From NCBI GenBank assembly GCA_049325335.1, contig JBMOMC010000002.1, forward strand, positions 46,612-110,611: 64,000 nucleotides of DNA, written 5' to 3'. The DNA is from Nitrospirota bacterium. Lineage in GTDB: Bacteria; Nitrospirota; Nitrospiria; 2-01-FULL-66-17. The position numbers were made by a program, and so were the translations under genes. This document shows positions 30,847 to 47,942 of the stretch, one piece after another (position 1 is the first letter of the stretch; each line of letters begins with the position of its first letter). The notes beneath the pieces were generated by a model that was not told where the DNA came from, ran no database searches, and saw only the letters and a program-made list of their open reading frames with translations.

Positions 30847-31416
30847 CTAATACGCGTCCGCGTCACATCGCACTAATCTCACGTCGACTTCCCGCTCCAC
30901 ATATGTCCATTCCACCGTGCTACGGAGCGCTGCGACCAGCTTGTCGAACGCCGCACCGTCCTCGGCCGCATACTCGAACCAGGTCAGAAAATCGAACGGC
31001 TCGTTGTCGCCCAGATCCCGGCAATGGTGCAGCTTGCGCGCAATCGCGGGCAGGAAACCCATGCCGATCCGGATGTGCTGGGACTGCGCTTCAAAGATCG
31101 CTCGTCGTTCGTCCTGCGGTAGGTTCCACCACGCGGCGGATTTTTTGATCGGGATCAGCGCGGCGTGCGTGGCCTCGAATCGGCCCAGCGGAGGCTGATT
31201 CGAGGCCAAGAGGCGTTTCTCCACCCGCTCCACGTAACGCTCGTTGCTGGTGATCCCGCGAAGCGCCCACGAACCGCTCCGCAACGGTTGCTGCGACAGG
31301 CTGTCGACCACGGTGACGTACCCCACCGGGTCCAAGCCATGCCCCTTCACCGCGTCCATTGTAAGGACGCGCCATTGACCCGTCGTACCTCCGATAAATG
31401 TTGACCGTCGAGACAT
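30847..31416 (-). CDS. chlorite dismutase family protein, short form
   Basis: 190 aa from ATG 31416; AAWWNLPQDERRAIFE and KLHHCRDLGDNEPFDFLTWFEY pattern typical of short-clade Cld-like haem proteins. Confidence 0.55.
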   Translation of the reverse strand: MSRRSTFIGGTTGQWRVLTMDAVKGHGLDPVGYVTVVDSLSQQPLRSGSWALRGITSNERYVERVEKRLLASNQPPLGRFEATHAALIPIKKSAAWWNLPQDERRAIFEAQSQHIRIGMGFLPAIARKLHHCRDLGDNEPFDFLTWFEYAAEDGAAFDKLVAALRSTVEWTYVEREVDVRLVRCDADAY

Positions 31417-31589
31417 CGCCACTCCGTCGAAATGTTCGATCGAAATACCCAATTTGCAACTTCCGGACCGAGTCGGGATGACTCGGGATTGGCCGAGCGG
31501 TGAAATGTTACCGAGGGAATGACGCGTTGAAGCTTGAACCAACCATCAAGGGTAGACAACTTTGTCGCCCGTCCGTCATTTCTGTCGGT

Positions 31590-31609
31590 CTCACGGCGAT
31601 CGCCGTGAG
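31590..31609. terminator. perfect 20-bp palindrome downstream of tonB
   Basis: CTCACGGCGATCGCCGTGAG; could be terminator hairpin or operator. Confidence 0.45.
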
Positions 31610-31623
31610 AAGGGTGAGGCCGT

Positions 31624-32586
31624 TTACACCGGGAAGAACACGAACGGGTAGGTGACGATGATGACGCCGTCATACAGGTGGGGGAACTTCCACATCTTGA
31701 TCCGGCTGGCGAGGGCTTGTTCCAGCGGGGCGTGATCCATGGTGGTGGAAATGATGCGCGTTTCAATGACCTTGCCGGTGGCGTCGATGGAAAACTCCAC
31801 GGAAATGGTGCCCTTGAGCGTGGGGTTGGCACGGAGTTCTTTGTTGTAGAGGTAGATCAGGCCGTTCTTGTACTGCTCCACCACGCGCGCGATGGCGTCG
31901 TAATCAATCGACGCGCCTGTCCCCGACCCACCGCCTCTCAGCCGGACGCCCACGCCGTCGCCGAGACGGTGCCCGCCGCTGCCCGCTCCGCCGGCGCCGG
32001 TCTCGGTTGGAATCCGGGCCAAGGCGACTTGTTCGCCGTGGGCGAGTCTGGTGCGGTCGCCGCTGCCCAGGGATTTGGATTTGGCCACGGTCTTGTCCAC
32101 CAATGCGGTATCGTGCGACAGGGGTTTAGTAGCAATGGCGCGGGTGCTCTTGGCGGTCGGGGCCGTGATCAGATCCGACGATGACAAGGCCTGGGTCAGG
32201 CGATCGCTCTCGATGATGTCGCTGAGTCCGCCTTTTTCTTCTTCTTCGATCAACGAGGCGAGCAGGCCGCTCTGCCGCACGATCTCCCGTGTTTGCTGGG
32301 CCGAGGGTTTTGGCGGGGCCGCCGGCTTCTTGTCGGCTTTGGGTTTGTCGGCGTCCTTCTTTTCCGGGGCGACGTCCGCCACGTTAGGTTTCTCCGGTGT
32401 GGCTACGATGGGCGGAGGTTCCAAGATCAGCTTCGCCACACGTTCGGGCAGATCCTGAATGTCGGGGTGCTCGGGAACAGGCATGCGGATGATGGTCACG
32501 AGCGCCGCGGCCAACAAATAGAAGCCCAGCGAGACACGCAGGGTCTTCTTAAACAGCTCATCGTCTGAATGCGGTACGATGATCAT
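31624..32586 (-). CDS. TonB-family energy transducer
   Basis: N-terminal TM anchor, Pro/Lys/Ala-rich linker, TonB-type C-terminal domain. Confidence 0.75.
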   Translation of the reverse strand: MIIVPHSDDELFKKTLRVSLGFYLLAAALVTIIRMPVPEHPDIQDLPERVAKLILEPPPIVATPEKPNVADVAPEKKDADKPKADKKPAAPPKPSAQQTREIVRQSGLLASLIEEEEKGGLSDIIESDRLTQALSSSDLITAPTAKSTRAIATKPLSHDTALVDKTVAKSKSLGSGDRTRLAHGEQVALARIPTETGAGGAGSGGHRLGDGVGVRLRGGGSGTGASIDYDAIARVVEQYKNGLIYLYNKELRANPTLKGTISVEFSIDATGKVIETRIISTTMDHAPLEQALASRIKMWKFPHLYDGVIIVTYPFVFFPV

Positions 32587-32598
32587 CTACGGTCTCCG

Positions 32599-33096
32599 TT
32601 AACCGATCTGCTCTTTTTGCACCACCGCGAGCGCGATGTGCGGAAACTCCGCCTGCGCGCAGGTGGCCATGAGTTTTTTGAGCAACTGAAACGGAATCTT
32701 GCGATCCCCCATAATCGTGATGTTCCCGGTGAACGTGACCGACGCGGTCTTTTGCGCCATGGCGCGGGTGCGGTCTCCCAACCGAGTCAGCTCCTGCGTG
32801 AGCGGTCCCAGGATAGTGTCCGGTTGCGCGATGGCTTCCGCCACGCCCATGACGCGTTTCCCGTCCACGAAGATCTCCCTGTCCGTCACCAACAAGGTGA
32901 CGGTCGGACGCGGGGCCTTTTCCGCGGTGGAGGCTGGCAGCTTGAGGCCTTCGGAGTCTGGTAACGCTTCTTCACCCGCAAGATGAACCAGGAGAAACAA
33001 TAGCAGGATGGTGAAAATGTCCATCAAGCTGATGAGGCTCAACGACACGACGGCGTCGCGGCCTCGTCGATTATGGAGCCGGTCGCGAAACTTCAT
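32599..33096 (-). CDS. ExbD/TolR-family protein
   Basis: Single TM helix and ExbD-like periplasmic domain. Confidence 0.8.
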   Translation of the reverse strand: MKFRDRLHNRRGRDAVVSLSLISLMDIFTILLLFLLVHLAGEEALPDSEGLKLPASTAEKAPRPTVTLLVTDREIFVDGKRVMGVAEAIAQPDTILGPLTQELTRLGDRTRAMAQKTASVTFTGNITIMGDRKIPFQLLKKLMATCAQAEFPHIALAVVQKEQIG

Positions 33097-33581
33097 ACGC
33101 GTTTAACCTCGCCGATTGAAATGTCCGGAAACAACTCCTGGGACGGGCCGGCCTTCCGGCACACGTCCATGACTTCGACCAAGGACTCGTACGCCACGTC
33201 GGGCTCGCTCAATAGGATGACCGACTTTTCCTGCGGGTAGGAGGTTTTTACCCGTTGCAACAGCGCAGTCAGCCCAGCGAGGTCGTACGCGCCGTTTTGC
33301 AGCGCGAGCCGATTCGGAGCCAACCCGCTGCCTTGTACGCTGATTCCGTCCCGGTGCAAGGCCACGATCAAGCTGAACGGTTCTTGCGCGGGCGGCGCGG
33401 CGGCGTGCGCGCTCGATGCCGTGGGCAGGTTGAGCTCCAACACCGCGAGCCGGGAAAACACCACGCCCGTCAGCAAGAACGGGATCAACACCACCATGAG
33501 ATTCATGAATGGCGTGATGTTCAGCGAGTTGTCGCCTTGCCCGAACCGGCGAGCCCGACGTAGCCGCACGCTATTTCGCAT
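33093..33581 (-). CDS. ExbD/TolR-family protein, second copy
   Basis: NITPFMNLMVVLIPFLL TM helix; 4-nt overlap with downstream exbD. Confidence 0.8.
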   Translation of the reverse strand: MRNSVRLRRARRFGQGDNSLNITPFMNLMVVLIPFLLTGVVFSRLAVLELNLPTASSAHAAAPPAQEPFSLIVALHRDGISVQGSGLAPNRLALQNGAYDLAGLTALLQRVKTSYPQEKSVILLSEPDVAYESLVEVMDVCRKAGPSQELFPDISIGEVKRV

Positions 33582-34293
33582 GCACGGTCCCTTTCATCCC
33601 CACCGCTCGGCGCGGCTGGAGCATTTCCGAGCCGTTGGAGTACGCGTCCGCCGCGTCACTCTTCGCCATCTGGCCGGCCAGATTCACCAGCCTCAGCGCG
33701 TACCCTTCCACGGTGTCGATAACCCGGTTGGTGCGGCTCTGGAGAAATCCGTGCACCAACATGAGCGGCACCGCCACGATCAATCCGAACGCGGTGGTGT
33801 TCATGGCTACTGAAATCCCCTTAGCCAACAACGTGGCCTTCTGGGCGGGGTCGGCCATCGACACCGCGGTAAAGGCCTGGATCAACCCTACGATGGTGCC
33901 GAGGAGTCCGAGCAGGGTGGCGACGTTGGCCAGATTCGGCAGGTAGTTGAGCCGTGCCTCCAGCCGCGGAATGACCTGCATCATGGCCTCGTCCACGCCG
34001 CCTTGGGCGTCTTCCCGGGTGAACGAGCCTTTCATGCCGCGAATTCCCCCCGCGAGGACCTGGTGGAGCGGGCGGTTGGACTGCGTGCAGTGACGCGCTG
34101 CTTCGTCCATGCGCCGGCCGTGGATGCTCGGCGCAATTTGCCCCCACAGCCGTTCGCCGTTGGTCCCGGCCCGCGCGATCACCACGATGCGTTCCACCAC
34201 GATCGCGGTTGACACAGCCAGCACCAGGAGGATCGGATACATGAAGAATCCTCCGGCCTGGAAAAAGTTGATATATGTTGCCACGCTGGTCAT
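33571..34293 (-). CDS. MotA/TolQ/ExbB proton-channel protein
   Basis: Three TM helices and the conserved C-terminal channel pattern. Confidence 0.85.
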   Translation of the reverse strand: MTSVATYINFFQAGGFFMYPILLVLAVSTAIVVERIVVIARAGTNGERLWGQIAPSIHGRRMDEAARHCTQSNRPLHQVLAGGIRGMKGSFTREDAQGGVDEAMMQVIPRLEARLNYLPNLANVATLLGLLGTIVGLIQAFTAVSMADPAQKATLLAKGISVAMNTTAFGLIVAVPLMLVHGFLQSRTNRVIDTVEGYALRLVNLAGQMAKSDAADAYSNGSEMLQPRRAVGMKGTVHAK

Positions 34294-34625
34294 TGGTTCC
34301 CTCCTCCTGTTCCGGATATCGGTGTGCGCAAAAGCTGGCGTTGAAAACGCGCTCGATCTACGGGTTCGAGTAGTTCTTGTTCAAAACTCCGGCGAAGCGG
34401 CATGTCGTTGTCCACCGCCGACAGCGTATTCTTCCACGGGACCACGTACACCACGTGCGGTTGCTCCAAGGTGCCCTGGATCTCGGTGCCTTCCATCAGA
34501 AAGCGTTCGACGTTCGCGTCCGTCCCGACGGACTCGGCTCCGGCGGGCGCGGTGTCCGCCGCTGAGGCCAGTCCGACAGCGAGCAGCACGGTTGCGGGTA
34601 TGAGCGACCCGATCAACCGCCTCAT
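34290..34625 (-). CDS. hypothetical periplasmic protein
   Basis: Signal peptide; 4-nt overlaps with both neighbours. Confidence 0.4.
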   Translation of the reverse strand: MRRLIGSLIPATVLLAVGLASAADTAPAGAESVGTDANVERFLMEGTEIQGTLEQPHVVYVVPWKNTLSAVDNDMPLRRSFEQELLEPVDRARFQRQLLRTPISGTGGGNQ

Positions 34626-35263
34626 GGCGTCTCCTTGACGCGGTCCACCCGCTTCTGGAGCGCGGCGATCCAGATCGCCACCTCCTCTTGCCCCTCTCCG
34701 CCCGCAGCCAGATAGGTCTGATAGTGCTCGATCGCCTTGTCGGGTTCATTGAGATACAGATCGTAGAGCACTGCCAGGTTGTAGTCGGCGTCTCGGAAAT
34801 CCGGCGCGGCATTGAGCGCGCGGCGGTATGCGTCTTCGGCCTGGCGAAACTTGCCTTGCTCGCGCAATGCGAGCCCCATGTTGTAGTAGGCTTCGGGGTA
34901 TTGGGGTTGGATCTTGATCGCCTGTTGGTACGCGGCTACGGCTTCCGGCAGCAGTCCCATGCGCTTGTAGACCACGCCGAGATTGTTGTGGAACACGCTC
35001 ACGTGCGGGTAGCTGGTCCGCAAGTTTTCGAACGCGGCCCTGGCTTCCTTGAGCTTTCCGTTCTCAATCAGGCTCGTACCTTTTTGGAAGCGTAGGAGAA
35101 CCTGGTCAAGTTTTTGTGCCTCAGCGGCACGCGATTCGTCGCTTCGCGCGGTGGTCTGAGTCGGGATCGGCGCGGGCGGCGGCAACATCGCGCGGGTGCA
35201 AGCCGTCAGCGCCGCGACAAGGACGAGCAACAGACGCATGAATTTCTGGGGACGGGTACTCAT
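34622..35263 (-). CDS. TPR-repeat lipoprotein
   Basis: Signal peptide with LTAC lipobox; at least three TPR units. Confidence 0.75.
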   Translation of the reverse strand: MSTRPQKFMRLLLVLVAALTACTRAMLPPPAPIPTQTTARSDESRAAEAQKLDQVLLRFQKGTSLIENGKLKEARAAFENLRTSYPHVSVFHNNLGVVYKRMGLLPEAVAAYQQAIKIQPQYPEAYYNMGLALREQGKFRQAEDAYRRALNAAPDFRDADYNLAVLYDLYLNEPDKAIEHYQTYLAAGGEGQEEVAIWIAALQKRVDRVKETP

Positions 35264-38103
35264 CGTTCAGCCGCCAAGAGCCTGTCAATGATTGACGAGA
35301 GCGGTTTAGCCGTCAACGTCTCGACATCGATATTCGAAGTGAGTCGCTCGGTTCGCTCTGGACGTTTGTAGAGCGCGGGCCGCAATTCCGCCAGCCGGTC
35401 GTAACTCTTCTTGACCCACTCGTTGTAGGCTCCCGGTTGGCTCGACGCCCGCTGCACGTTGCTGGCATACGCCTGAATCGCCTTTTCTTCAAACGGGAAC
35501 GCTTTCTCTTCCAGTTGGAACTTGTACTCGTCCACCTGTTCCGGGGTGAGTTTCTTCGGGAGTTCGGCTTCGAGCAGCGCGGTCTTGAAGTGTTCGAACA
35601 CCTCGCCCAGGCGGTACGCGGACGTGGCAACCACCTCCTGGTATCGCGTCTCCGCGGCCCGTGTGTAGAGCGTGATCGTCTTGTCCAACGCCTGAGTCTT
35701 ATTTTTGAGGTTCTTTTTGAACGGCTCCCTCAGGGCGATTTTTTTAAGCGACCGGAACGACTCCTCGGCCTGGTGGAACACGGCTTGCGCCGCGAACTGG
35801 GTGCCGGGTGCCTGTTGTTCCACCTCCGTGAACAGCTTGAGGGCCTCCATGGTCTTCCCCTGGCGCTGCCGGATCATGGCCATCTTCCACCAACCTTCAG
35901 GCGCATCCGGGTGTTTGGGGAACCGCTCGGTGAATTGCGCGAAGACCGCGTAGCTCTTGTCCCATTGGGAGGCCTTTTCGTAATCGACACCGGCGGTCCA
36001 GAGAATCTGTGGCGCCTGCGCGTGGTGTTGGGGTAACGTGGCCGCGGCTTCGAAAGCCTCGGCGGCTTCGCCCCACTGTTCACCTTGTTCGTAAATCAAG
36101 GCGGTTTGGAGCGCGGCTTTTGCGCCGAGGTCGGACGTGGGGTCGCGCTGGACCAGTTGCTGGTAGGCGGCGATCGCCTCGCGCGGCTGCTTGAGCGTTT
36201 CGTACAGACTCGCCGCCTCGAACAACGCGTCGGCCGCCAAGGGGCTCTCCGGGGCTTCGCGCGAGATGGCGGCAAACGTCTTGGCCGCGTCGCTGAGCCG
36301 ATTGGCCTTCTTGTGCTGCTCTCCCTGCTTGTACATGGCCGCGGCCAACAGATCGTTCATCTCGCGCTGCTGGGCCTTGTCCGCTGTCGGGAGGAGCGAC
36401 AGGGTCAGCGCGTACGCCGCGCGAGCCTCGTCGAAACGGCCTTGCCGCATATAGGAGTGGGCGATCAACTTCTGCGCGGTGGCGGTGCCCGTGAAATTGG
36501 GATACCGGGACAAGACCTGCCCCAACATCTCGCGCGCCTCGGCATCGCGTTGCTGGTCGAACAGGATCTCGCCGGACTTGAGCAAGACCGTGGGCGTCCG
36601 GGCATCCTTCGGGAACTGATCCGCGAACCGTTTCGTCAACGCGACGAATCGCTCGTGGCCCTTCTTGTCCTGAAGTTTTTCCGCGGCCACGATGGCGGAG
36701 TACGCGGGTTCTTTGTCCGCCGCGACTCCGGGATAGCTGTAGGCCACGGCTTCGTACGCCGCGGCCGCCTGCGCATACTCCTGCAACGCCATCAGGGATT
36801 CGGCGTACAGCAGATGGACTTCCCGCGTGTCCTTTTCCTCAGGGAACTCCGCGAGGAACTGGCGATACCATCCGACTGCTTCCCGATACTGCTCGGCCTG
36901 TTTGCTCTCCCGCGCAGCGGCATGCGCGGACACCCCGAGCCGGTACAGACTGTCTTTGACCAAGGGGCGCGAGCGGGCTCGACCGGCCTCGTCGGTGGCC
37001 TTGTACCAGACGCTGGTGCTCAGGTACCCGTTCACGAGTGCGATTCTGGCGTCACGCGCGGCTTCGGGATCCCTCTCCTTCTCGTACGCCTCGATGACAT
37101 ACGACGCGAAGATGGGCGCCATGTCGTGCATGGGATGCTGTTGTACGAACGTCCGGTAGGTCGCAATCGCCTGCTGCCGGTTCCCCTCACCCAGATATTG
37201 GTTCCCCATCATGAGGTAGAGATCTTTCTCGTAGAGCGCGATCCCGTGTTGTTTGAAATAGTCGGCCATGGGTTGCGGCCCGCCCAACCCCCGGAATGAA
37301 ATAGCCACGTACGTCAGCGCTTCCCACACGAGGGACCCGGAGTCGGCGGCCGTGGCCGGTTGTCCGGCGGTCTTCTTGTCCACGAGGTACAAGAACTGAT
37401 CGACCGCGTGCGGGTATGCGCGGAGATTGAAGTAGGTCCACCCGAGTTTGTACCGGGCCCGGTCTTGAAGGACCGGATCGTCGAGCCCAATCGTCTGCTC
37501 ATAGGCGTCAGCCGCCTGCTCGAATCGACGGCCGTCAAAGTCGGATTCGCCGATACGGAAATATGCTTCCTGGAGGTGGGGACTGGTCGGGTATTCCGCG
37601 ACCAACTTACTGAGCAACGGCTGGGCCAGGTCCCGACGCCCGGTCTCCGAGTAGGCACGGGCCAGACCGTACAGCACGTCGTCCTGCGCATGAAATGTCG
37701 GATCGGTTTCGAGCAACGTCCGGTAGGTCGTGATCGCGTCGTCGTAATTGACCAGCGGCGGGGGGCCTTGTGGGTCCTTCTCATACGCCTCCATCGCCGA
37801 GAGAAATTGCTGGTGCGCGCGTTCAAGATACAGATCCCCGAGCCGTTTGAGTGCCTCGGATCGCAGGACGGGGTCCACGGTTCCGTAATCCTTGAGAAAG
37901 CCTTCATACCCTGTGATCACGTCGGCTTTGCGAACCACGGGCAACGGCGCGCTCGAAGCCGCGTTTACGGCCTCCGAGTCCACGCGCAACACGCCGTGAT
38001 CCTTCGCGCTTGCGCAGGCCGTCAGCAGGCATGTGAGGCCGGCGAGAGACCACGTGGTCGCGGTGTGAAAAACACGGTGTTTCATTGGCTCGCCATATCC
38101 CAC
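35260..38103 (-). CDS. large TPR-repeat protein (947 aa), secreted
   Basis: Signal peptide then TPR-like helical repeats throughout. Confidence 0.8.
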   Translation of the reverse strand: MGYGEPMKHRVFHTATTWSLAGLTCLLTACASAKDHGVLRVDSEAVNAASSAPLPVVRKADVITGYEGFLKDYGTVDPVLRSEALKRLGDLYLERAHQQFLSAMEAYEKDPQGPPPLVNYDDAITTYRTLLETDPTFHAQDDVLYGLARAYSETGRRDLAQPLLSKLVAEYPTSPHLQEAYFRIGESDFDGRRFEQAADAYEQTIGLDDPVLQDRARYKLGWTYFNLRAYPHAVDQFLYLVDKKTAGQPATAADSGSLVWEALTYVAISFRGLGGPQPMADYFKQHGIALYEKDLYLMMGNQYLGEGNRQQAIATYRTFVQQHPMHDMAPIFASYVIEAYEKERDPEAARDARIALVNGYLSTSVWYKATDEAGRARSRPLVKDSLYRLGVSAHAAARESKQAEQYREAVGWYRQFLAEFPEEKDTREVHLLYAESLMALQEYAQAAAAYEAVAYSYPGVAADKEPAYSAIVAAEKLQDKKGHERFVALTKRFADQFPKDARTPTVLLKSGEILFDQQRDAEAREMLGQVLSRYPNFTGTATAQKLIAHSYMRQGRFDEARAAYALTLSLLPTADKAQQREMNDLLAAAMYKQGEQHKKANRLSDAAKTFAAISREAPESPLAADALFEAASLYETLKQPREAIAAYQQLVQRDPTSDLGAKAALQTALIYEQGEQWGEAAEAFEAAATLPQHHAQAPQILWTAGVDYEKASQWDKSYAVFAQFTERFPKHPDAPEGWWKMAMIRQRQGKTMEALKLFTEVEQQAPGTQFAAQAVFHQAEESFRSLKKIALREPFKKNLKNKTQALDKTITLYTRAAETRYQEVVATSAYRLGEVFEHFKTALLEAELPKKLTPEQVDEYKFQLEEKAFPFEEKAIQAYASNVQRASSQPGAYNEWVKKSYDRLAELRPALYKRPERTERLTSNIDVETLTAKPLSSIIDRLLAAER

Positions 38104-40010: not shown

Positions 40011-40542
40011 ACCCGAACTCGGGTTGTTTCTTGGCGTCGTCGTCGCGAATGACCAACTTTAAGAAAGCCGCGCCTTTCTCCTTGGCGAGGGGGATGTTCT
40101 CCGCTCGTTTGTAGTCCTGTCCTTGCGGACCTTTGCCCGTAAACACCGCGGCGATTTGATGGTCGCCTGACTTCACGTTACCCATATACAGCCGCTGAAT
40201 CCCGCCCTTTTTGAGCGCGGTGACTTCGCGCTCGGTATACAGGTGCGTGGTCACCATGGTGTCGTCGAGCACCAATTTCACGGAGTCTAAGACGAAGTAA
40301 TTCCCGCCCTCGACGCTCAGGAAAATCACCAACGAGGAGTCCTCCGGATACAACAGATCTTCCTGGAGTCGAAAGAGCCGCGTGTTGAGATCGAGCACGT
40401 CGTCTTTTAATCGCTGGATCTTCACGTCCAATGCCTCGATGTCGCGTTCAGGATTGGGAGGTTCCTCCGCCCGCGTGGGGAACCCCGTCGTGAAGACGAA
40501 CGAAAGACACCAGAATCCGACGAGTGCGTGAAATGGTTTCAT
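39994..40542 (-). CDS. hypothetical secreted protein
   Basis: ATG 40542 overlaps apbE stop (ATGA); signal peptide MKPFHALVGFWCLSFVFT; ORF-track N-terminal extension lies inside apbE. Confidence 0.5.
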   Translation of the reverse strand: MKPFHALVGFWCLSFVFTTGFPTRAEEPPNPERDIEALDVKIQRLKDDVLDLNTRLFRLQEDLLYPEDSSLVIFLSVEGGNYFVLDSVKLVLDDTMVTTHLYTEREVTALKKGGIQRLYMGNVKSGDHQIAAVFTGKGPQGQDYKRAENIPLAKEKGAAFLKLVIRDDDAKKQPEFGYEAWH

Positions 40543-41585
40543 CAGGGTTCCTTCCCGTGTTCCATAAGTTTTGCCCCGAGGCCGAGTCCCGCCAGCCCCG
40601 AGGACAGGTGCATGTCGCCGTTTCGGTCGATGATGATCGCCTCCACGTCGTCCAGTTGTTCGACCAGCGCCAGGCCTTGTTCCGGGCCCAGCACGAATAC
40701 GGTTGTCGACAACGCGTCGCTGGTCATCGCGTCCGTCGCCAAAATGGTGGCGCTGCGAGATTTCTTCGCGGGATATCCGGTGGTCGTGTCGAGAATATGG
40801 TGGTAACGCACGCCGTCTTTGACGAAGAATCGTTCGTAGTCTCCGGACGTGGAAACAGCCTGGTCTTCGAGCGGCAACACCGCGAGAATGCCGTCGGCCT
40901 TGTCCGGATCCCGAAGCCCGATTCGCCACAAATCGTCGCCGTTTGTGCCCCGGATCAGCGTGTCACCGCCCGCCATGACCATGGCGTTGTGGACTCCGTG
41001 TGCGTTGAGCACGGCCATGGCCCGGTCCATGGCGTACCCTTTGCCGATCCCGCCGAGGCCGATCTCCATCTCACGCGCAGGGAGAAACACCGTGGAGTGG
41101 TCGTCGTCGACGCGGACCTTCCGATAATCCACAAAGGGGAGCTGGGCCTTCACGGCGGCGGGGTCGGGGATCACGCCCGCGCGAAAGTTCCAAAGTTTTC
41201 CGACCGACGCGAAGGAAATGTCGAACGCGCCGTCGGAGAGTCGGGAGAAAAACAGCGAGCGTTGAATCACCTGCAACAATTCGCGACTCACCGCAACCGG
41301 CGCCACCCCGGCCTGTTGATTGATCCGGGACAGTTCGGTCTCCGGCAGAAAATTGCTCATGAGCCGTTCCAGACGGGAAACCTCGTCGAACGCGGCGTTG
41401 ACCGCGCGCCGCAGTTGTTCGCGATCGTTACCCACGGCTTTCACGATCACCTGGGTTCCCATCAACGCGCGCTCTTCGGACACGAGTACGGGTCGGGAAG
41501 GCGGCGTGACGGCCTGAACCGGCGCCACCGCTGCGCCGGCCAGCAGTACGTTAGTAAGTAAAGCCAACGCTCGTGTGTAGGACAT
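40542..41585 (-). CDS. apbE: FAD:protein FMN transferase (ApbE family)
   Basis: Signal peptide; ApbE-family pattern (GGIGKGYAMD, SGDYERFF...RYHHILD). Confidence 0.8.
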   Translation of the reverse strand: MSYTRALALLTNVLLAGAAVAPVQAVTPPSRPVLVSEERALMGTQVIVKAVGNDREQLRRAVNAAFDEVSRLERLMSNFLPETELSRINQQAGVAPVAVSRELLQVIQRSLFFSRLSDGAFDISFASVGKLWNFRAGVIPDPAAVKAQLPFVDYRKVRVDDDHSTVFLPAREMEIGLGGIGKGYAMDRAMAVLNAHGVHNAMVMAGGDTLIRGTNGDDLWRIGLRDPDKADGILAVLPLEDQAVSTSGDYERFFVKDGVRYHHILDTTTGYPAKKSRSATILATDAMTSDALSTTVFVLGPEQGLALVEQLDDVEAIIIDRNGDMHLSSGLAGLGLGAKLMEHGKEP

Positions 41586-42687
41586 GGGCTCTCTGCGAGT
41601 ACAGTGCGCCGGTGCGCGGGTCCGTAAAGTTGTCGTAGTCGTACATCAACAATGCGTAGCTGAACAGGACCGACATGTTTTCCAGCCCGTGCCACTTGAA
41701 CCCTTGGGGTTTGTATTGAAGCGATCCGCCGATCCAGTGGTCGGAGAAGCGTGATAACTCCTTGTCCCGGGCCTTGTAGATCTGGGTGGCCGGGACCCGG
41801 TCCCCGTAAAAACTGGCCTCGCCCTGACGGTAATATCGATAAAACACGCCGCCGAGCCAATCGGCGCGTATGTACCGCTGATATTCCACCTTGCCGGTAT
41901 GGGACCTGACCTCAAAGGTGTCCTGGTAGTACCGATAATCGATCTGGATGGCGCTGCGCCGCCCGATCGACACGTTGTCCGCTGATCCGGGATCAAACCC
42001 ATAACTGGTTCGCAGCGCCCACGCGTGCCCGGTCCGTGATTCAGGATACCGTTCAGGAGCAAACGCCTCGCTGTCGAGGATCGCGCTGCGGTACGGATTG
42101 TTGAGAAAACCGGAGTCAGCCGTGTTTTCATAGTTGATCTGCCCCAACCAACGAGGGGTCAATGACTGACTCAGCCCGACCGCATAAATCGTTCGGTTGG
42201 CGTGTTCCTGCCCGAACGCGGGATCGCCGTTTTTGCCGATCTCATCCCAGGAGCGAGCAAGCCGGAAAGTGAGCGTGGCGTTCTTCTCGAAGAGGTCGTG
42301 CGCCATGGCCACGGCGAACGTGTTTGAGGTGTAGTCGGACTCGTGGCTCCGCGTGTAGTTGATTCCGGTGAGGATGTCCTCGTGCAGGACGTCGGCGCCC
42401 AATGAATATTCGGTCCGCTGTTCGCGGTACGGGCTGGCCTGGGTCACCACGTCGATCGATGCCGAGCTGACCAGATCCACCCTGGCGCCGGCCTTGACCG
42501 ACAGGCGGTTGAGCAATTCCTTCTTGACGATCATGGCCGGTCCTTGAACCGTAATACCGCCGCCGCTGTAGAGGTTGTAGCCGATCGCCATATCGTCTTG
42601 GGGAGGCTCCACGGCCTCCGCGGTACCGAGCAGCCCGGCCAGCAGCGCCGCACAACCGCCGGCTTGCATGCACGCGCGCGCGTTCAC
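41551..42687 (-). CDS. DUF3570-like outer-membrane beta-barrel protein
   Basis: Signal peptide; alternating beta-strand pattern ending in aromatic residue. Confidence 0.6.
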   Translation of the reverse strand: MNARACMQAGGCAALLAGLLGTAEAVEPPQDDMAIGYNLYSGGGITVQGPAMIVKKELLNRLSVKAGARVDLVSSASIDVVTQASPYREQRTEYSLGADVLHEDILTGINYTRSHESDYTSNTFAVAMAHDLFEKNATLTFRLARSWDEIGKNGDPAFGQEHANRTIYAVGLSQSLTPRWLGQINYENTADSGFLNNPYRSAILDSEAFAPERYPESRTGHAWALRTSYGFDPGSADNVSIGRRSAIQIDYRYYQDTFEVRSHTGKVEYQRYIRADWLGGVFYRYYRQGEASFYGDRVPATQIYKARDKELSRFSDHWIGGSLQYKPQGFKWHGLENMSVLFSYALLMYDYDNFTDPRTGALYSQRAHVLHTSVGFTY

Positions 42688-42911
42688 CGGCAGCCGCAGC
42701 CCCCGCCGCTTCCGCTAAACCCGCCGCGCGATCCCTCCAACACTTCTTCGATGTGCACGTGCCATTCCGCCTGGAGGACGTTGGCGTCGAACTGCATGAT
42801 TTCGTCCGCGAGGTACTCTCGCTGCCACGGCTTCACCGCGGAGCAACCCGCGAGCAGGGCGCTGATCATCACGGTCGCAAGCACGAGGGCCTTCGCGGTC
42901 ACCGGCGTCAC
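42684..42911 (-). CDS. DUF4266-like small lipoprotein
   Basis: 75 aa, lipobox LAGC, C-terminal GGGCGC signature. Confidence 0.6.
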   Translation of the reverse strand: MTPVTAKALVLATVMISALLAGCSAVKPWQREYLADEIMQFDANVLQAEWHVHIEEVLEGSRGGFSGSGGGCGCR

Positions 42912-43432
42912 TCCTTGAGCAATGCGCGGATTTCGGATTCGTACCGATCCGGGTCGGCGGGCCCAAACCCCCAGTGCACGTGACGAAGGGTCCCGTCCTT
43001 GGCCACGACGAACGTGGTCGGCATGGAGCGAATCTGGTACAGGTCCGATGTGCTCCCGGCCGGATCGAGCAACACGGGGAACGACAGGCCGAGCGCGGCG
43101 CTCAGGTGCGAGGCCTGGGAGGACACCTTGTCGATATTGACGCCGAGGACTTCCAACCCGAGGTTCTGATACCGACGATACAGGACGTTGAAATACGGGA
43201 GTTCCTCTTTACACGGCGTGCACCACGTGGCCCAAAAATTCACGAGCACCACCCGTCCGCGCAGTTCGCTCAACTTCACGTTGCCGCCGGTCGAGCGCTT
43301 CAGCGTGAAGTCGGGCGCCTTCTTTCCCGCGCGGGGGATCTCGCTTGAAACGGGTGGCGCCAACAGCAGCACACTCAACAACGAGGCGGCCAACAACGAG
43401 ACAATGCGAATCGTACGCATCGGGTTCCTCAA
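42908..43432 (-). CDS. TlpA-family thiol:disulfide oxidoreductase
   Basis: Signal peptide; thioredoxin fold with WATWCTPCKEE active site. Confidence 0.85.
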   Translation of the reverse strand: MRNPMRTIRIVSLLAASLLSVLLLAPPVSSEIPRAGKKAPDFTLKRSTGGNVKLSELRGRVVLVNFWATWCTPCKEELPYFNVLYRRYQNLGLEVLGVNIDKVSSQASHLSAALGLSFPVLLDPAGSTSDLYQIRSMPTTFVVAKDGTLRHVHWGFGPADPDRYESEIRALLKE

Positions 43433-44079
43433 AAGAATAGGACGAGGGCGAGGGTGCCCTCGATGTTGTACGTGAGTTTGTTCACGCCCGTGACATCGGT
43501 TTCGAACATATGAAACCGCAGGTCGGGCCTCACGTTGAACCAGTCCGTGACAAAGATTTTGAACCCGGTCCCCGCATTGGCGCTGAAGTGGCTGCGGTCA
43601 TCCATGGTGACCTGGCCTAAGCCGCCCGCCAGATAGATGGCGGAGTTGATGGTGCGTTTGCGCGTGAGAAAGAGTTGGCCCGGGAAGAGATCGTAAGAGA
43701 CGCCGACGTTCCAGTATGAGAGATCGTCATTGACCAATAACGAGCGGCCCGTCAGCCGGCGAAACGCGGATTGATCGACTTGCGAGATCGCGTAACTCGC
43801 CTCGAACGCGACATCTTCGTTGACGTGATAGGTGAGTCGCAGTCCGAACACGGAGGATGCGCCGAAGCCGTCGGGCGCGTAGATGCCGGCGTACGGACCC
43901 AACTCAAACCGTTCGGTGTCCAGGCGCGCTTCTTTGAGCCGCCGATCGTCGCTCGGCGGCTTGATGACGGGTTCCTCCTCGATCGGCAGGCCCTGACCGA
44001 ATGCCGATGATCCGAGATCCACGCCCGCGCCGATTACCAGACCCATCCCCACCGCCATCCATGTCCGCCACGTCATCAT
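43429..44079 (-). CDS. outer-membrane beta-barrel protein
   Basis: ATG 44079 gives signal peptide MMTWRTWMAVGMGLVIGAG; amphipathic strands, C-terminal Phe. Confidence 0.5.
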   Translation of the reverse strand: MMTWRTWMAVGMGLVIGAGVDLGSSAFGQGLPIEEEPVIKPPSDDRRLKEARLDTERFELGPYAGIYAPDGFGASSVFGLRLTYHVNEDVAFEASYAISQVDQSAFRRLTGRSLLVNDDLSYWNVGVSYDLFPGQLFLTRKRTINSAIYLAGGLGQVTMDDRSHFSANAGTGFKIFVTDWFNVRPDLRFHMFETDVTGVNKLTYNIEGTLALVLFF

Positions 44080-44084
44080 GGTCG

Positions 44085-44807
44085 CTAGAAGTGGAACACC
44101 AATCCCGCGCTGTACTCTTGGAACTCCCTGGTGCGTTCGGTGGTCATGAACAGGGTGAAATGTCGGACGTCCACGCGCCCCTCCAGGTTCCGGAACAGCG
44201 GAACGATGACTCCGACGCCGGCATGCATGGTGGGAAACGTGCCGGAGTCGGCGTTGACCAACAGGGTGGTGGGCGTGACGTGCGCGACGCCCCCGCCCAT
44301 GGCGGCGTTGACCGCCAGCCACGACGCGCGCCACGGGGTTACCACGATCCCTCCGTGGTAGAGTTGCGTGCTGCCCAAGTCCCCGGCCCCAAAGCCTCCG
44401 GTCGCTTCGAACGCGAGATGGTCGGTGAGCGTGTGCGTGAACCGCACGCAGAGGACCGGATCACCCGCGAACGTGCCGGCGCTCCACCCCAATGCGGTAC
44501 GGCCCGCGATGAAGTCGTCATAGATTCGCTCGGTCCAACGCTTGCGGTATCCGGATGCCATCAAGGTTTTTTCGATCTCGCGTCGATGGGCCCATCCCAC
44601 GGTTCCGTTGCGGAGACGGATTTCGTACCAGTCCACGCGTTGTTTGAGCAGCCGGATGGTTTCGCCTTTCTCCGCGATATAAAAGACCGGGTAGCTGCTT
44701 CCCGGTCCGGTATGGATTTCCAGAAACGGTTCGACCACCGCGGCTTCCCGGAAGACGGGCTCCTTTCCGAACGCGACGGCGGGGCCGACCATCAGCCCCA
44801 CCGCCAT
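44085..44807 (-). CDS. SH3-like domain + outer-membrane beta-barrel protein
   Basis: ATG 44807 (MAVGLMVG); bacterial SH3-like segment then barrel strands ending in Phe. Confidence 0.45.
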   Translation of the reverse strand: MAVGLMVGPAVAFGKEPVFREAAVVEPFLEIHTGPGSSYPVFYIAEKGETIRLLKQRVDWYEIRLRNGTVGWAHRREIEKTLMASGYRKRWTERIYDDFIAGRTALGWSAGTFAGDPVLCVRFTHTLTDHLAFEATGGFGAGDLGSTQLYHGGIVVTPWRASWLAVNAAMGGGVAHVTPTTLLVNADSGTFPTMHAGVGVIVPLFRNLEGRVDVRHFTLFMTTERTREFQEYSAGLVFHF

Positions 44808-44848
44808 GATGCAGATCCCGAGTCCCCATCCCGCAATCACCCGCGCCC

Positions 44849-45310
44849 TCAAAGCGGGTTCTGGATCCAGCCCAAGATCGCGACATAATCCGCGTCCGTC
44901 GCGCTCATGAAGATGTCTCCCCCCAGGTGCTGAATCCCGCCCGCCGCGAGCGCCAATGGTTTGGTGAGCAGTTTGCTGGTCGTCGGGTTGGCGAGGTTGG
45001 CCATGCCCGCGGCCGAGTCGCTGTTGGCGAGCAACTGATCCGCGGTGCAGGAGTTTCCCGAACAGTCGAACACCCGAAAACTCCCGCCGGGTCCTCCCGA
45101 ATTCGGGTTGTCCTTGTCCCGGTAGTGGCACCCGCCCTGCGAGCAACTGCGCGCGTCGAGGATCGATTGAATCGCCGTGGCAAATACCGACTGATCCAAT
45201 TGACCGAGCGCCTCCTGCTCGCCGGGTTCCACGTGCCCGCAACCCGTTCCGAACCACGCCGTCATCATCGCGCACGCAAGTATACCCCTCGTGTGTGATC
45301 GGCCCGCCAT
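44849..45310 (-). CDS. small secreted cytochrome-c-like protein, paralog of the C-terminal module of 45313..47745
   Basis: Cys-rich; CSQGGCH (Cx4CH) at the position of CASCH in the paralog; shared C-terminal TDADY(V/A)(A/T)IL(G/N)WI. Confidence 0.5.
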   Translation of the reverse strand: MAGRSHTRGILACAMMTAWFGTGCGHVEPGEQEALGQLDQSVFATAIQSILDARSCSQGGCHYRDKDNPNSGGPGGSFRVFDCSGNSCTADQLLANSDSAAGMANLANPTTSKLLTKPLALAAGGIQHLGGDIFMSATDADYVAILGWIQNPL

Positions 45311-45312
45311 CC

Positions 45313-47745
45313 TCACTGCGCCGCGATGATCCAGTTGAGGATGGTGGCGTAATCCGCGTCCGTGGCGGCCAACGGCGCGGGATTCACCGGCTGGCCGTTG
45401 CGGACCATCGGCACCACGCCGGTGCCTTTGACGAACAGCAGGCTATTGGCCGGGTTGGTCACGTTCACGCGGGCCGCGGTCGCCCCAAAGTCGCCTTCGG
45501 GGTCTCCGGTCAGCACGAAATTGCTGTCGCCGCCCGCCACGTGACAACTCGCGCACCGTCGTTGCAAGATGGGCTGAATCGTGGTTTCGAACACGGTCTC
45601 GTCCAGATTCGCCCGGCCCGGATTGGTGATGACGTCGTAGTTGCTGAACTGCGCGCCCAGATCGATCCACTCCACGATGGTGCGTTTATCTTGGGCCGAC
45701 AACATCCCGGCGTGGTTATTGGCGTCGGTGGCCGGCAAGGCCACGGACGAACGGAGTTCCTCGCCGAAGATGCGCTCGACCAGATGGCTTTGGCGTGATT
45801 CCCCGGGCTGCACGAGGTCGGATCCGTCCGACTCCATTTCGCCGCCGAGCAGGGTGGTGTACGAGATCGGGAACCCGAGGCCCGACACATCGCCGCTCAA
45901 ATCAAGATTCCCGCTCGGGGTGGTTGACGAGTGGCACGACACGCATTCCGCGTCGAAGATCGTCTGCACGTGGTCCGTATAGTCAATGACCGCGATGGTG
46001 GGCGGCGTGTACACGGACGGCGCGCGGTTGAGCGCGATCGAATCCGCGGCTGCGCGTTGCGGCTGACCGCGACGCGGCGAATGGCAGCCGTTGCAGGTCC
46101 GGCTTTCGCCGGGCCGCACCTGCAGCCAGTTTTCCTTCACCTTAAACGACCGTCCCTCATTATCGACCACGTGCAAGGTCAGGGACGTGTCGGCCGGGAC
46201 CGTGACCCGGAACGAGCCGTCCGCTTCGACCGGGGCATATCCCAGGATTTTTTGGCGCTCGAAGTCGGTGAGCCCCATGTCTTCGACCCCCACCCCGGGC
46301 TGGCTCGGCACCGCCTGGACCACTCGAACCTGTCTGACCACTTGCAGCGACGCGTCGCCGACCAGCGCCGCGAAGTCGATGTTGCCGCTGCCGTCGCGCG
46401 GAATGGTCACCCCCAAGACGCTGTTCGACAACGCGCGGTTGGCTTCGGAGTCGTACACGCTTGTTGCCGCGAGCACGCCGGTTGTCCCGGTCCGGTTCGC
46501 AGGTGTACTGGGCTTGGTCGAGGGGATATCGCTGGCGGCCACGGCCATCAACGGCACCGGCTCCACGTAGACCTGCTGGGTTCCGGCGTTCGGCACTTTG
46601 ATGGGTTTGAGCGTTCCGTCCGCGTTGTTGAGCATCCAGATGCCATACCGAGCCTCTTCCCCCTCGGTCACCACCCCGGTATCCTCGTCTTCCATATCTT
46701 CGACCACCTCACCGGTCGAGTAGGAGACCAGGTAGCGGTTGGTCCCGTCCGGCACCGGGTACACGTTGTGATACCGGCCGACCTCGGAGGCTTCCCGGCC
46801 GGTGGGAATCACTTGGCTTCCGGTCAACTGGAGCGACGAGGTGTTGGGGTTGTCGGCTTCCGCCGCCACGTCGACCACGCCGATGGCGCCGCCTTCAAAC
46901 GTGCCGGTCAATGGCATCATGGTGCCGACCATTTGCCCATCCGGGAGCTCCCGGATGTCCAAGAACGAGTTCACCCCGGAATGGGATCCGTATTTGACGA
47001 ACATGTCGGTTCCGTCCGGTCCCATCACGAACATGGGGAACTTGTTTTCTCTGCCCAAGTGTTCCCAACGACTGAACGCAATGTTCCCGTCGCGCAGGAC
47101 AATCGGGTTGCGGTCGTGGCTTTGATTAAACGAAATCTGGACCACCTCGCCGCCGTCGCACGACGGTTGGGACGACGACACCGGTTGCGTGCGATCCAGC
47201 ATGTGCAGCACGGTGGATCGCCGGCGTTCGTATTCGTCGAGGTGCCCGGGTCGATCCGAGGAGAACACGATTCGGCCGTCGGGCAGGTACTGCGGATCCA
47301 CTTCGTTTGACGAACCGCACGTGAGCTGGACCGGATCGCTCACCCGCGTCCCGTCCGCGTTCACGTCCACTTCGTACAGATGCCACCGGTCCGCGCTGCT
47401 GGTGCGCATCGCGAACACCACCCGAAACTGCTCGTCGGTGGTCTGGGCGAACACCTCCGGATCGCTCACATCGCCGACCCCGTTCGTGACATCACCCGTG
47501 AGGTTTCGTAGGGTGCCGGATGGGGTGGCGGGCACCAGAGTCATCAGATCGCCGCCTGGTTCGAAGCGAATGGGATCCAATGGGTCACCAATCGCGTCGA
47601 GGCTCCGCGCCGCAAAGACGATCCCAGGGATGTCTTCCTGCGCGACCGGGCTCTCTCCGGTTCCGCAGGACCACGCGGCAACCCCGCCGACCAGGGACAA
47701 CGCGCCCCAACGGATCCACTTCATCGTTTGTGCGTGCAGTCGCAT
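45313..47745 (-). CDS. secreted beta-propeller (TolB/PD40-like) protein with three CxxCH haem-binding motifs
   Basis: Signal peptide; PD40-like repeats (LPDGRIVFSSDR); CNGCH, CVSCH, CASCH; ATG 47745 with GAGGA upstream. Confidence 0.65.
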   Translation of the reverse strand: MRLHAQTMKWIRWGALSLVGGVAAWSCGTGESPVAQEDIPGIVFAARSLDAIGDPLDPIRFEPGGDLMTLVPATPSGTLRNLTGDVTNGVGDVSDPEVFAQTTDEQFRVVFAMRTSSADRWHLYEVDVNADGTRVSDPVQLTCGSSNEVDPQYLPDGRIVFSSDRPGHLDEYERRRSTVLHMLDRTQPVSSSQPSCDGGEVVQISFNQSHDRNPIVLRDGNIAFSRWEHLGRENKFPMFVMGPDGTDMFVKYGSHSGVNSFLDIRELPDGQMVGTMMPLTGTFEGGAIGVVDVAAEADNPNTSSLQLTGSQVIPTGREASEVGRYHNVYPVPDGTNRYLVSYSTGEVVEDMEDEDTGVVTEGEEARYGIWMLNNADGTLKPIKVPNAGTQQVYVEPVPLMAVAASDIPSTKPSTPANRTGTTGVLAATSVYDSEANRALSNSVLGVTIPRDGSGNIDFAALVGDASLQVVRQVRVVQAVPSQPGVGVEDMGLTDFERQKILGYAPVEADGSFRVTVPADTSLTLHVVDNEGRSFKVKENWLQVRPGESRTCNGCHSPRRGQPQRAAADSIALNRAPSVYTPPTIAVIDYTDHVQTIFDAECVSCHSSTTPSGNLDLSGDVSGLGFPISYTTLLGGEMESDGSDLVQPGESRQSHLVERIFGEELRSSVALPATDANNHAGMLSAQDKRTIVEWIDLGAQFSNYDVITNPGRANLDETVFETTIQPILQRRCASCHVAGGDSNFVLTGDPEGDFGATAARVNVTNPANSLLFVKGTGVVPMVRNGQPVNPAPLAATDADYATILNWIIAAQ

Positions 47746-47942
47746 AGCGTCCTCGTTTCTCGGGGTGAAGAGTGGGTACATGGCTCGTCGCATAGGTGCA
47801 AATCGCATGCGAGGCTCGGTGTGGAGCTCGATCGCGGCCGCGGGGGCGAAACGCTCGATTGCCGGCTTGTCGTTGTTCGAACATGGACATCGGATTCAAA
47901 AATGGTGATGACCCTTCCATGGGTAATTACCATCCGGTGATG

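Follow-up and report, generated by a model that had tools for sequence, protein, structure and literature searches.

A chain of 17 genes in an uncultured Nitrospirota bacterium joins two groups of genes that have so far been described separately. The chain lies on the minus strand of a 64,000-nucleotide stretch of DNA (the window; contig JBMOMC010000002.1 of assembly GCA_049325335.1) and runs unbroken from 47745 down to 31624 in its listing of open reading frames (ORFs). The downstream part (31624-40542, module M) is identified by homology as an Agl-Glt core, consisting of a proton channel, a mixed stator, a transducer, a scaffold of tetratricopeptide repeat (TPR) proteins, and two small secreted proteins. 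The upstream part (40542-47745, module R) is an outer-membrane redox set, as homology and structure prediction show.

The reading favoured here, held at a little under an even chance, is that the operon encodes one trans-envelope machine. In this machine, a Tol/Exb-like motor would be coupled to an outer-membrane module for electron transfer through flavin, thiol, and haem groups. We infer the mechanism that would join motor and redox chemistry from gene composition, homology, synteny, and co-variation, all of which were observed.

A sequence-only reading of the window had already placed 17 minus-strand genes between 47745 and 31624, and all of these ORFs are present. Its domain calls (three CxxCH motifs, SH3, barrel, TlpA, DUF4266, DUF3570, ApbE, TPRs, ExbB, and ExbDs) were borne out by Pfam and NCBIfam models. 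Its central proposal, that a proton-motive-force transducer is coupled to redox, flavinylation, barrel, and haem genes, is supported by strong evidence in the form of conserved order and co-variation. The claim that the operon maps to no characterised system has to be narrowed, since two published units (PMC3169522, PMC8238504) cover parts of it; both are of open function, and neither includes the linkage or the gene related to HzsA, the hydrazine synthase alpha subunit. An energised envelope redox or substrate-acquisition machine, as was then suggested, is a reasonable reading, if an unproven one.

Conservation of the linkage across genomes

Related loci were collected by a scan with a DUF3570 alignment, taking one genome per species. 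This gave 80 loci, onto which the 17 window proteins were mapped by tblastn. The scan covered 10 kb on each side of DUF3570, and 13 of the 80 loci are cut by contig ends and stayed unclassified. This search of gene neighbourhoods found the full cluster order again in 26 species representatives, and the Agl-Glt core follows DUF3570 in 26 of the 67 classifiable loci.

The full clusters belong to Nitrospirota, Ca. Manganitrophaceae, a ‘Deltaproteobacteria’ metagenome-assembled genome (MAG), Burkholderiales (Ideonella, Scleromatobacter, Rivibacter, and Vitreoscilla), and Ectothiorhodospiraceae. The full set thus covers no fewer than two phyla (Nitrospirota and Pseudomonadota), with several orders among the proteobacteria. 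The order is kept where the proteins share just 24-48% identity. A separate search based on GltD, the large TPR lipoprotein of the core, led to metagenome contigs that again carry the whole cluster with a GltD only 29-30% identical. A protein 100% identical to the GltD of the window is encoded on a 453,804-bp contig of a Nitrospirota MAG, and for the other operon proteins the closest homologues come from Nitrospiria MAGs.

One rearrangement is seen in the proteobacterial full clusters, where ApbE sits upstream of the HzsA-like gene instead. In four of the Burkholderiales clusters (L012, L017, L023, and L040), the relocated ApbE is preceded by an additional TlpA-like gene.

Another 41 loci, from Woeseiaceae, tubeworm endosymbionts, and other Gammaproteobacteria, hold a short cluster of the HzsA-like gene, the SH3-barrel gene, the second barrel gene, DUF4266, and DUF3570, to which TlpA is added in some. 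The genes that follow are unrelated (Pfam check, locus L065). Full and short clusters alike retain the paired barrels and the motif residues of DUF3570. The HzsA-like gene stands upstream of DUF3570 in 57 of the 58 loci with enough sequence.

A comparison of the two kinds of cluster identifies the genes that track the motor. The small lipoprotein with a CX4CH motif occurs in 24 of the 26 full clusters and in none of the 41 short ones, an absence that gene spacing likewise shows. ApbE is found in 21 of 26 and 0 of 41, a secreted 183-aa protein in 26 of 26 and 0 of 41, and TlpA in 26 of 26 and 6 of 41. Because these four genes track the motor and the full order is kept across lineages, the motor and redox genes appear to be coupled. 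The combination of cross-phylum synteny and gene co-variation also makes a chance adjacency of separate operons unlikely, and that explanation was set aside.

Other loci show the core with different neighbours. In locus L091, TlpA and the 183-aa protein accompany the core, and a Laminin_G_3 cytochrome set takes the place of DUF3570. In locus L090 (GCA_041619315.1, 3326-13759), a PepSY_TM protein and an FMN_bind protein, the latter with the canonical flavinylation motif DNISGAT, lie directly upstream of GltC/D/E; no ExbB or ExbD genes follow GltC/D/E on this contig. The core motor therefore has varied partners, of which the flavin-haem module is one that is recurrent and widespread.

Several further features of these loci were recorded. 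Farther upstream in L090 are genes for a globin-like protein, DUF3034, and an OmpA-cupredoxin fusion. A gene pair adjoins HzsA-like genes both in a Woeseiaceae short cluster (L065:970-4902) and in a core-linked locus (L091:1613-5231). It encodes a PSD2/DUF1585 protein of 386-439 aa and a Laminin_G_3 protein of 815-868 aa with a cytochrome c-like motif, and may be another partner set. In L087:10001-13174 and L091:10001-13423, a GltE-like TPR region is apparently fused to the C-terminus of a GltD-like protein; the final part of the large ORF is matched by the window's 213-aa GltE homologue, and GltE was not called as a gene of its own.

The same loci bear on the first rival explanation, in which two independent systems share an operon. 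The core would then do maintenance or transport work of the Tol-Pal kind, and the redox set would be self-contained. Each module does occur alone: the redox set in short clusters, the core in a core-only cluster and in clusters of the gliding type. Moreover, the TPR proteins match YbgF/CpoB and BamD models, the ExbB protein has TolQ as its best match, and the propeller of the HzsA-like protein resembles TolB. Two independent systems would nevertheless have to account for a 17-gene order with overlapping codons that is kept at 24-48% identity, and for four redox-side or unassigned genes that track the presence of the motor (TlpA also occurring in those 6 of 41 short clusters). They would also have to account for L091, where the core has kept TlpA and the 183-aa protein despite the replacement of the DUF3570 set, and for L090, where a second kind of flavin module adjoins GltC/D/E. 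This explanation is considered unlikely.

The motor module

The Agl-Glt core complex was described by Luciano et al. 2011 (PMC3169522) as gltC, gltD, gltE, gltG, aglR, aglQ, and aglS plus one extra gene, which has no myxobacterial homologues. Its genes form a cluster in Geobacter, Fibrobacter, and certain Gamma- and Betaproteobacteria. Its function in bacteria that do not glide was left open, and the authors argue that the core by itself cannot power motility. Table S3 of that paper lists Tgr7_0536-0543 of Thioalkalivibrio sp. HL-EbGR7 as homologues of GltG, AglS, AglQ, AglR, GltE, GltD, and GltC. Individual entries pair Tgr7_0543 with MXAN_2541 (GltC), Tgr7_0542 with MXAN_4870, Tgr7_0541 with MXAN_4869, and Tgr7_0539 with MXAN_6862, and the lengths given are 222 aa for AglR, 190 for GltE, 922 for GltD, and 620 for GltC.

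The window order GltC-GltD-GltE-small-ExbB-ExbD-ExbD-GltG equals that of Tgr7_0543..0536 (CP001339.1; BLASTP). On this homology, 31624-40010 is a member of the Agl-Glt core complex: eight genes stand in the same order, the GltG-type C-terminal domain is present, and one ExbB-like protein is accompanied by two ExbD-like ones. In contrast to the published unit, the core is here joined to nine upstream genes absent from PMC3169522, namely those for the 183-aa protein, ApbE, DUF3570, DUF4266, TlpA, two barrels, the CX4CH lipoprotein, and the HzsA-like protein. The host also belongs to a phylum, Nitrospirota, that is not among the taxa of that study, and barrels of the GltA/B family are present. 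The full cluster order is found in Thioalkalivibrio too, where Tgr7_0536-0543 sit downstream of an HzsA-like homologue (locus L003); the gene list of PMC3169522 ends at Tgr7_0543 and does not include the redox genes upstream of it.

Three TPR proteins form the presumed periplasmic scaffold; these genes, like all 17, are on the minus strand. The GltC homologue (38082..40010, 642 aa) has TPR matches in Pfam and matches Tgr7_0543 at 5e-19. The GltD homologue (35260..38085) is a lipoprotein of 941 aa from the ATG at 38085, with matches to TPR_6 (6.8e-42) and Tgr7_0542 (1e-84) and a remote match of 1.7e-13 to the D-like protein of the Stigmatella Glt-like cluster. Its repeats pass the cut-off of the YbgF model (TIGR02795, 156 bits). 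The GltE homologue (34622..35263, 213 aa) is also a TPR lipoprotein (TPR_1, 2.1e-23; Tgr7_0541, 2e-26) and weakly matches the gliding_GltE model NF033758 at 7.4e-12. Next comes a small secreted protein of 111 aa (34290..34625) with no Pfam or NCBIfam family match. It corresponds to the additional gene of the core, as a 91-aa protein at the Tgr7_0540 position matches it at 8e-06.

The inner-membrane proton channel is an AglR-type MotA/TolQ/ExbB protein (33571..34293; PF01618, 1.8e-26) at the position of Tgr7_0539. Its best NCBIfam match is TolQ, with 66 bits against a cut-off of 221. Two ExbD/TolR-like stator subunits follow. The upstream one (33093..33581; PF02472, 7.7e-17) reads F-M-N-L-M: in 19 of 20 related loci, Asn replaces the transmembrane Asp that binds the proton in typical ExbD/TolR proteins. 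The downstream one (32599..33096; PF02472, 1.3e-12) reads L-M-D-I-F and retains the Asp in 20 of 20. The preservation of this Asp/Asn pair across loci points to a mixed stator, like AglQ/AglS in the AglR5QS model (PMC11761067).

The last gene encodes a TonB-like transducer of the GltG type (31624..32586) with an N-terminal transmembrane helix, a linker rich in Pro and Lys, and an AgmX/PglI C-terminal domain (NF033768, 5.3e-24, 84.2 bits against a cut-off of 40). It matches the gliding_GltG model NF033760 at 1.1e-26 over positions 375-645 of 650, and stays under the cut-offs for TonB: 19.0 against 24.6 for PF03544 (TonB_C), and 22.3 against 27.1 for TIGR01352. The label TonB-ExbB-ExbD2, which the sequence-only reading had given to these genes, is therefore replaced by the AglRQS/GltG lineage, as the AgmX/PglI model is passed, TonB_C is not, and there is no TonB-dependent receptor.

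Tol-Pal was considered as the family for these genes, given a TolQ/TolR-like stator, a TolA/TonB-like transducer, YbgF/CpoB-like TPRs, and a propeller that is TolB-like by fold. It was rejected on the scores for TolQ (66 bits against 221) and TolR (29.6 against 127). Tol-Pal differs further in that no Pal, OmpA_C, or TolB orthologue is found in the cluster, which carries redox cofactors.

Between the core and the flavinylation genes lies the gene for the 183-aa protein (39994..40542), a secreted protein with a coiled coil and a beta-rich domain; from the ATG at 40542 it has 182 aa, and it was analysed as a 183-aa translation. It has no match in Pfam, NCBIfam, or the PDB (sequence search). Its family comprises 967 representative clusters at E<=1e-3 and appears, from these searches, to be undescribed. 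Loci whose GltD-like proteins share about 40% identity have 61-64% identity in this protein, making it the best conserved on the motor side.

The flavinylation genes

Four consecutive genes match, by Pfam, the families ApbE, DUF3570, DUF4266, and TlpA. ApbE (40542..41585) is a secreted FAD:protein FMN transferase (PF02424, 7e-86; NF007774, 8.7e-40). DUF3570 (41551..42687) is recognised by PF12094 at 8e-29, and DUF4266 (42684..42911) is a small lipoprotein with a C-terminal CxC in GGGCGCR (PF14086, 1.2e-16). The TlpA/ResA-like thiol-disulfide oxidoreductase (42908..43432) is secreted and has a WCTPC motif (AhpC-TSA, 1.2e-32; Redoxin, 3.4e-27; ResA and TlpA in NCBIfam).

In the section on ‘DsbD systems’, Méheust et al. 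2021 (PMC8238504) described gene clusters that combine ApbE with DUF3570, a thioredoxin-like protein, and DUF4266. DsbD is present in 227 of their 543 clusters and missing from 316, and the function was left open. Experiments on the Chlorobium proteins showed that ApbE flavinylates DUF3570 at two [S/T]GA[S/T] motifs, and the CXC motif of DUF4266 was noted as well. Flavinylation clusters, including 25 DUF3570 clusters with VIT1, were tied to iron assimilation. Judged by its families, 40542-43432 is a cluster of this type, with the four side by side, the CxC of DUF4266, a secreted ApbE, and two Ser/Thr-x-Ala-Ser/Thr motifs in DUF3570. It differs in its lack of DsbD, in a thioredoxin-like protein of the TlpA/AhpC-TSA type rather than PF13899, and in the sequence of the first motif.

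The candidate ApbE targets in DUF3570 are D71-L-V-S-S-A-S77 and T-Q-A-S85. Across 85 sequences, D71, S74, A76, S77, D79, V80, and S85 are invariant, and Ala84 is nearly so. The position of the Gly in the published motif is Ser, Asn, or Gly in the same sequences; it is Ser here and Gly in Thioalkalivibrio. For the ApbE target motif that the sequence-only reading had thought worth seeking among the neighbours, these are candidates, with the invariant residues but not the Gly of [S/T]GA[S/T]. In a Ca. Manganitrophaceae locus (L011:3321-4430), the second motif reads T-Q-G-S, with the Ala lost, and the first, S-S-A-S, is intact. The second flavinylation site may therefore not be universal.

An AlphaFold2 (AF2) model of DUF3570 (pLDDT 85.9) is all-beta with 16 strands, and its fold matches are outer-membrane barrels only (receptor barrels, PelB, PgaA, TamA, and MtrB). 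The prediction for DUF3570 is accordingly an outer-membrane barrel of 16 strands. Its motif falls in the loop that joins strands 3 and 4, where model confidence is low. Since this is an odd-numbered loop, standard barrel topology would place the flavin loop outside the cell.

A barrel of this kind, next to a TonB-like transducer, raises the possibility of uptake of the TonB type. In this second rival explanation, flavin and haem would convert extracellular Fe(III) or Mn, and the GltG/ExbBD motor would open DUF3570 or the paired barrels for import. The tie between flavinylation clusters and iron assimilation (PMC8238504) agrees with it, as do the weakly TonB-like C-terminus, Pro-rich linker, and ExbB/ExbD partners of GltG. 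The DUF3570 model also superposes on the barrels of TonB-dependent receptors. The carriers include Ca. Manganitrophaceae and relatives of the Leptothrix group, both of them metal-oxidising lineages. However, the cluster contains no plug, TonB-dependent receptor, or inner-membrane importer; GltG falls under the TonB_C and TIGR01352 cut-offs; 16 strands are fewer than the 22 of the receptors; and TonB systems have nothing that corresponds to the large GltC/D/E scaffold. Uptake of this type is held to be doubtful. As a family, TonB uptake was rejected on those two sub-cut-off scores and on the absence of TonB_dep_Rec and Plug domains from the 17 proteins.

The putative haem proteins

The first gene of the operon (45313..47745) encodes an HzsA-related lipoprotein (Pfam HZS_alpha, 7.7e-20). 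An N-terminal beta-propeller leads into an HZS-alpha middle domain that contains CNGCH; the C-terminal part is made up of two cytochrome c domains, with CVSCH and CASCH. The three CxxCH motifs, at positions 551, 601, and 731, are present in 111 of 120 homologues, and Cys27 is nearly invariant, consistent with a lipobox.

The sole match in a PDB sequence search is 5c2v_A, the alpha subunit of hydrazine synthase from Kuenenia stuttgartiensis, at 4.4e-19. The alignment pairs CNGCH with CSGCH and CVSCH with CAMCH. An AF2 model (pLDDT 84) has the same protein as its best fold match over the whole length (E 1.5e-32, TM 0.60), followed by TolB (4r40_A, 1.3e-10) for the propeller. Structure prediction therefore upholds the beta-propeller with three CxxCH motifs that had been read from the sequence. 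Both proteins have a propeller, a haem c middle domain, and a C-terminal cytochrome c domain. At about 20% identity, the HzsA-like protein differs in adding a third cytochrome domain and a lipid anchor, and the cluster differs in lacking beta and gamma subunits and in having non-anammox carriers. A true hydrazine synthase was rejected as the family, given 104.7 bits for NF052339 against an equivalog cut-off of 800 and no HzsB or HzsC, second propeller, or dihaem peroxidase-like gene in the cluster.

The second haem candidate is a small lipoprotein of 155 aa (44849..45316) with C-x4-CH and H-GG-x-IF motifs. It has no Pfam, NCBIfam, or PDB match. A BLASTP match of 2e-08 to the C-terminus of the HzsA-like protein makes it a paralogue of the third cytochrome domain of that protein, and its lipobox Cys and CX4CH are kept across phyla. 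The earlier description of it as a cytochrome-like lipoprotein is corrected as to the motif, which is CX4CH and not CxxCH.

The full-length fold match suggests a third rival explanation: the HzsA-like protein would be a catalytic enzyme acting on small nitrogen compounds, with the remaining cluster serving its maturation and electron supply. The haem motif of the middle domain does align with the catalytic haem site of 5c2v_A. Against this, the model score is far below its cut-off, the partner subunits HzsB and HzsC are missing from the cluster, and the carriers are sulfur oxidisers, heterotrophs, and Nitrospirota rather than anammox bacteria. The extra cytochrome domain and lipid anchor do not fit either. 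In addition, CNGCH is followed by S-P-R-R, and the Tyr haem ligand of Kuenenia, which we take to lie four residues after the motif His, is not apparent. An enzymatic role of this kind is considered very unlikely.

The paired outer-membrane barrels

Two further barrels are encoded between the haem proteins and TlpA. The first (44085..44852, with the start codon between 44807 and 44852) carries an N-terminal SH3b domain (SH3_3, 7.4e-10) and weakly matches TIGR04565 over its C-terminal half. The second (43429..44079, 215 aa) is an outer-membrane beta-barrel of the OMP_myx_plus family (TIGR04565, 7.7e-39, 133 bits against a cut-off of 60). Barrels of TIGR04565 also adjoin GltG- and GltC-like genes in the Glt-like cluster of Stigmatella erecta. 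The origin of GltA/B barrels was placed in Myxococcales and Bdellovibrionales (PMC3169522). Their presence beside core complexes outside these groups suggests a greater age for the outer-membrane barrels of the gliding machine than had been assumed.

In the structural model of Agl-Glt, GltC links the GltA/B barrels to GltD and to the C-terminal domain of GltG, binding all three (PMC11761067). The Myxococcus complex is driven by AglRQS, and its outer-membrane complex handles lipoproteins. The window shares with Myxococcus Agl-Glt/Nfs the TolQR-like motor, the TonB-like GltG, the GltD/E/C scaffold, the paired barrels, and the outer-membrane lipoproteins. It differs in that its lipoproteins are redox proteins rather than an adhesin, and its GltG lacks the cytoplasmic FHA domain of the Stigmatella homologue. 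Gliding machinery was rejected as the family of the operon, as none of the 17 genes matches GltH, GltI, GltJ, GltK, CglB, MglA/MglB, or AglZ. A gliding-motility or spore-coat machine like Myxococcus Agl-Glt/Nfs, the weakest of the rivals, could appeal to eight genes homologous to Agl-Glt components and to barrels of the GltA/B family, but it is scarcely credible without the missing homologues or an FHA domain in GltG, given that true gliding-type clusters (Robl_LC7 and Arf) carry MglB/MglA-like genes beside GltD and that the core alone is insufficient for motility (PMC3169522).

A proposed mechanism

In the proposed machine, ApbE would load covalent FMN onto the loop of the DUF3570 barrel, and the SH3 domain of one of the paired barrels would bind peptidoglycan. 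Electrons would pass between the periplasm and the outer face through thiols (TlpA and DUF4266), flavin (DUF3570), and haem (the HzsA-like and CX4CH proteins), in a direction that the proposal leaves unset. As in Myxococcus, GltG and the GltD/GltC scaffold would connect the proton-driven motor to the paired barrels. The motor would do mechanical work on the redox module by assembling, exposing, gating, or moving it, just as Agl-Glt handles CglB. Candidate substrates would be metal, sulfur, or oxygen species. The flavin module beside GltC/D/E in locus L090 is an independent hint that motor and flavin chemistry are coupled.

An analogy for the mode of working is MtrCAB of Shewanella (6r2q), which likewise combines an outer-membrane barrel with lipoprotein multihaem cytochromes, and whose MtrB is among the fold matches of DUF3570. 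The likeness concerns how the systems work and not membership, as sequence homology was not shown. In the window, by contrast, the barrel is predicted to have 16 strands and to bear flavin itself, the haem motifs number only 3+1, and a thiol relay is present beside a proton-driven motor.

Several observations weigh against a single machine. Beyond homology, the link between modules M and R is drawn from gene neighbourhood. None of the 41 short clusters has a motor within 10 kb, and the GltD-based search also returned one core-only cluster and several gliding-type clusters (with MglA/MglB or an FHA-GltG) that have no redox genes. The paired barrels, which short clusters retain, may belong to the redox module rather than to the output of the motor. 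On the motor side, the NCBIfam GltC model NF033756 is not matched at E<=1e-3, so the label of the GltC homologue depends on its orthology to Tgr7_0543. On the redox side, CX4CH is a putative haem motif only, and neither DsbD nor CcdA is encoded in the 17-gene chain or by its direct neighbours. The first DUF3570 motif is S-S-A-S and not the published [S/T]GA[S/T], and its extracellular position is deduced only from standard barrel topology applied to a loop modelled with low confidence.

A bolder version of the single-machine reading concerns the original job of the Agl-Glt core, the ancestor of gliding and spore-coat machines. The core would at first have powered or organised an outer-membrane flavin-haem electron conduit, with DUF3570 as a ‘porin-flavoprotein’ bearing surface FMN. 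Barrels of the GltA/B type would expose or move lipoprotein cytochromes under proton-motive force, and the GltA/B of gliding bacteria would descend from the redox module. This version is speculative and rather improbable. If true, it would amount to mechanically energised extracellular electron transfer.

Operon boundaries and flanking genes

The 16 junctions of the chain are overlaps of 1, 4, 11, 17, or 35 nt or gaps of at most 41 nt, lengths that assume plausible start codons. The sequence-only reading had the upper limits of both correctly; its minimum overlap of 4 nt is replaced by 1 nt. The SH3-barrel gene, which is the 3' part of the ORF 44085..45275, is the sole gene that is not the longest ORF in its own frame.

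Upstream of the first gene is an intergenic region of about 200 nt (47746..47942), the presumed site of the operon promoter. No sigma-70 consensus was found in it, and this consensus is of doubtful use for Nitrospirota. The region is followed by a MatE transporter gene ending at 47943. Beyond MatE lie a YceI-like gene on the minus strand (49718-50404) and, on the plus strand, two genes for diguanylate cyclases (GGDEF, 50479-51321; GAF-GGDEF, 52213-53526).

At the other end, 13 nt after the last stop codon, stands the perfect palindrome TCTCACGGCGATCGCCGTGAGA (31589..31610), which occurs once in the window, where chance would predict 0 matches. A palindrome had been noticed at this end before and given as 20 bp; it is 22 nt long. 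It folds into a 9-bp hairpin (z = -3.3) without a U tract and is a possible terminator hairpin of that form. Directly downstream is a chlorite-dismutase-like gene (30847-31542, minus strand; Pfam 4.6e-10). In the relatives compared, neither this gene nor MatE is kept beside the cluster.

Promoter-like sites in a sigma-70 consensus scan of the window, which has a G+C content of about 62%, are at the expectation from shuffled sequences. Terminator-like sites number 23 against 15.5 ± 4.5 in shuffles, a marginal excess with no strong internal candidate. As promoter and terminator consensus are both doubtful for Nitrospirota, the scan neither supports nor opposes internal signals. An Rfam scan of window 1-64000 gave no family at the gathering score.

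Implications

Two questions meet in this operon: the role of the core complex in bacteria that do not glide, and the purpose of the DUF3570 flavinylation system. The main text of PMC8238504 does not mention HzsA-like, barrel, or Agl-Glt partners, and the supplementary text searched has no entries for MotA_ExbB, ExbD, or HZS_alpha, although PF12094 itself is likewise unmatched there. Literature searches on HzsA-like proteins outside anammox, on Agl-Glt with flavin or cytochrome, and on Tgr7_0542-0551 returned nothing relevant. In the literature searched, the linkage of the modules and the HzsA-like, CX4CH, and barrel genes thus appear undescribed.

The linkage is the first concrete clue to what the widespread core motor works on. 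It also predicts a kind of cofactor-bearing outer-membrane barrel that has not been described. The carriers include culturable bacteria, namely Thioalkalivibrio sulfidiphilus, Ideonella, Scleromatobacter, and probably Methylibium. Two systems without an assigned function are thereby turned into one testable hypothesis, in which a proton-driven motor would act on an outer-membrane redox module.

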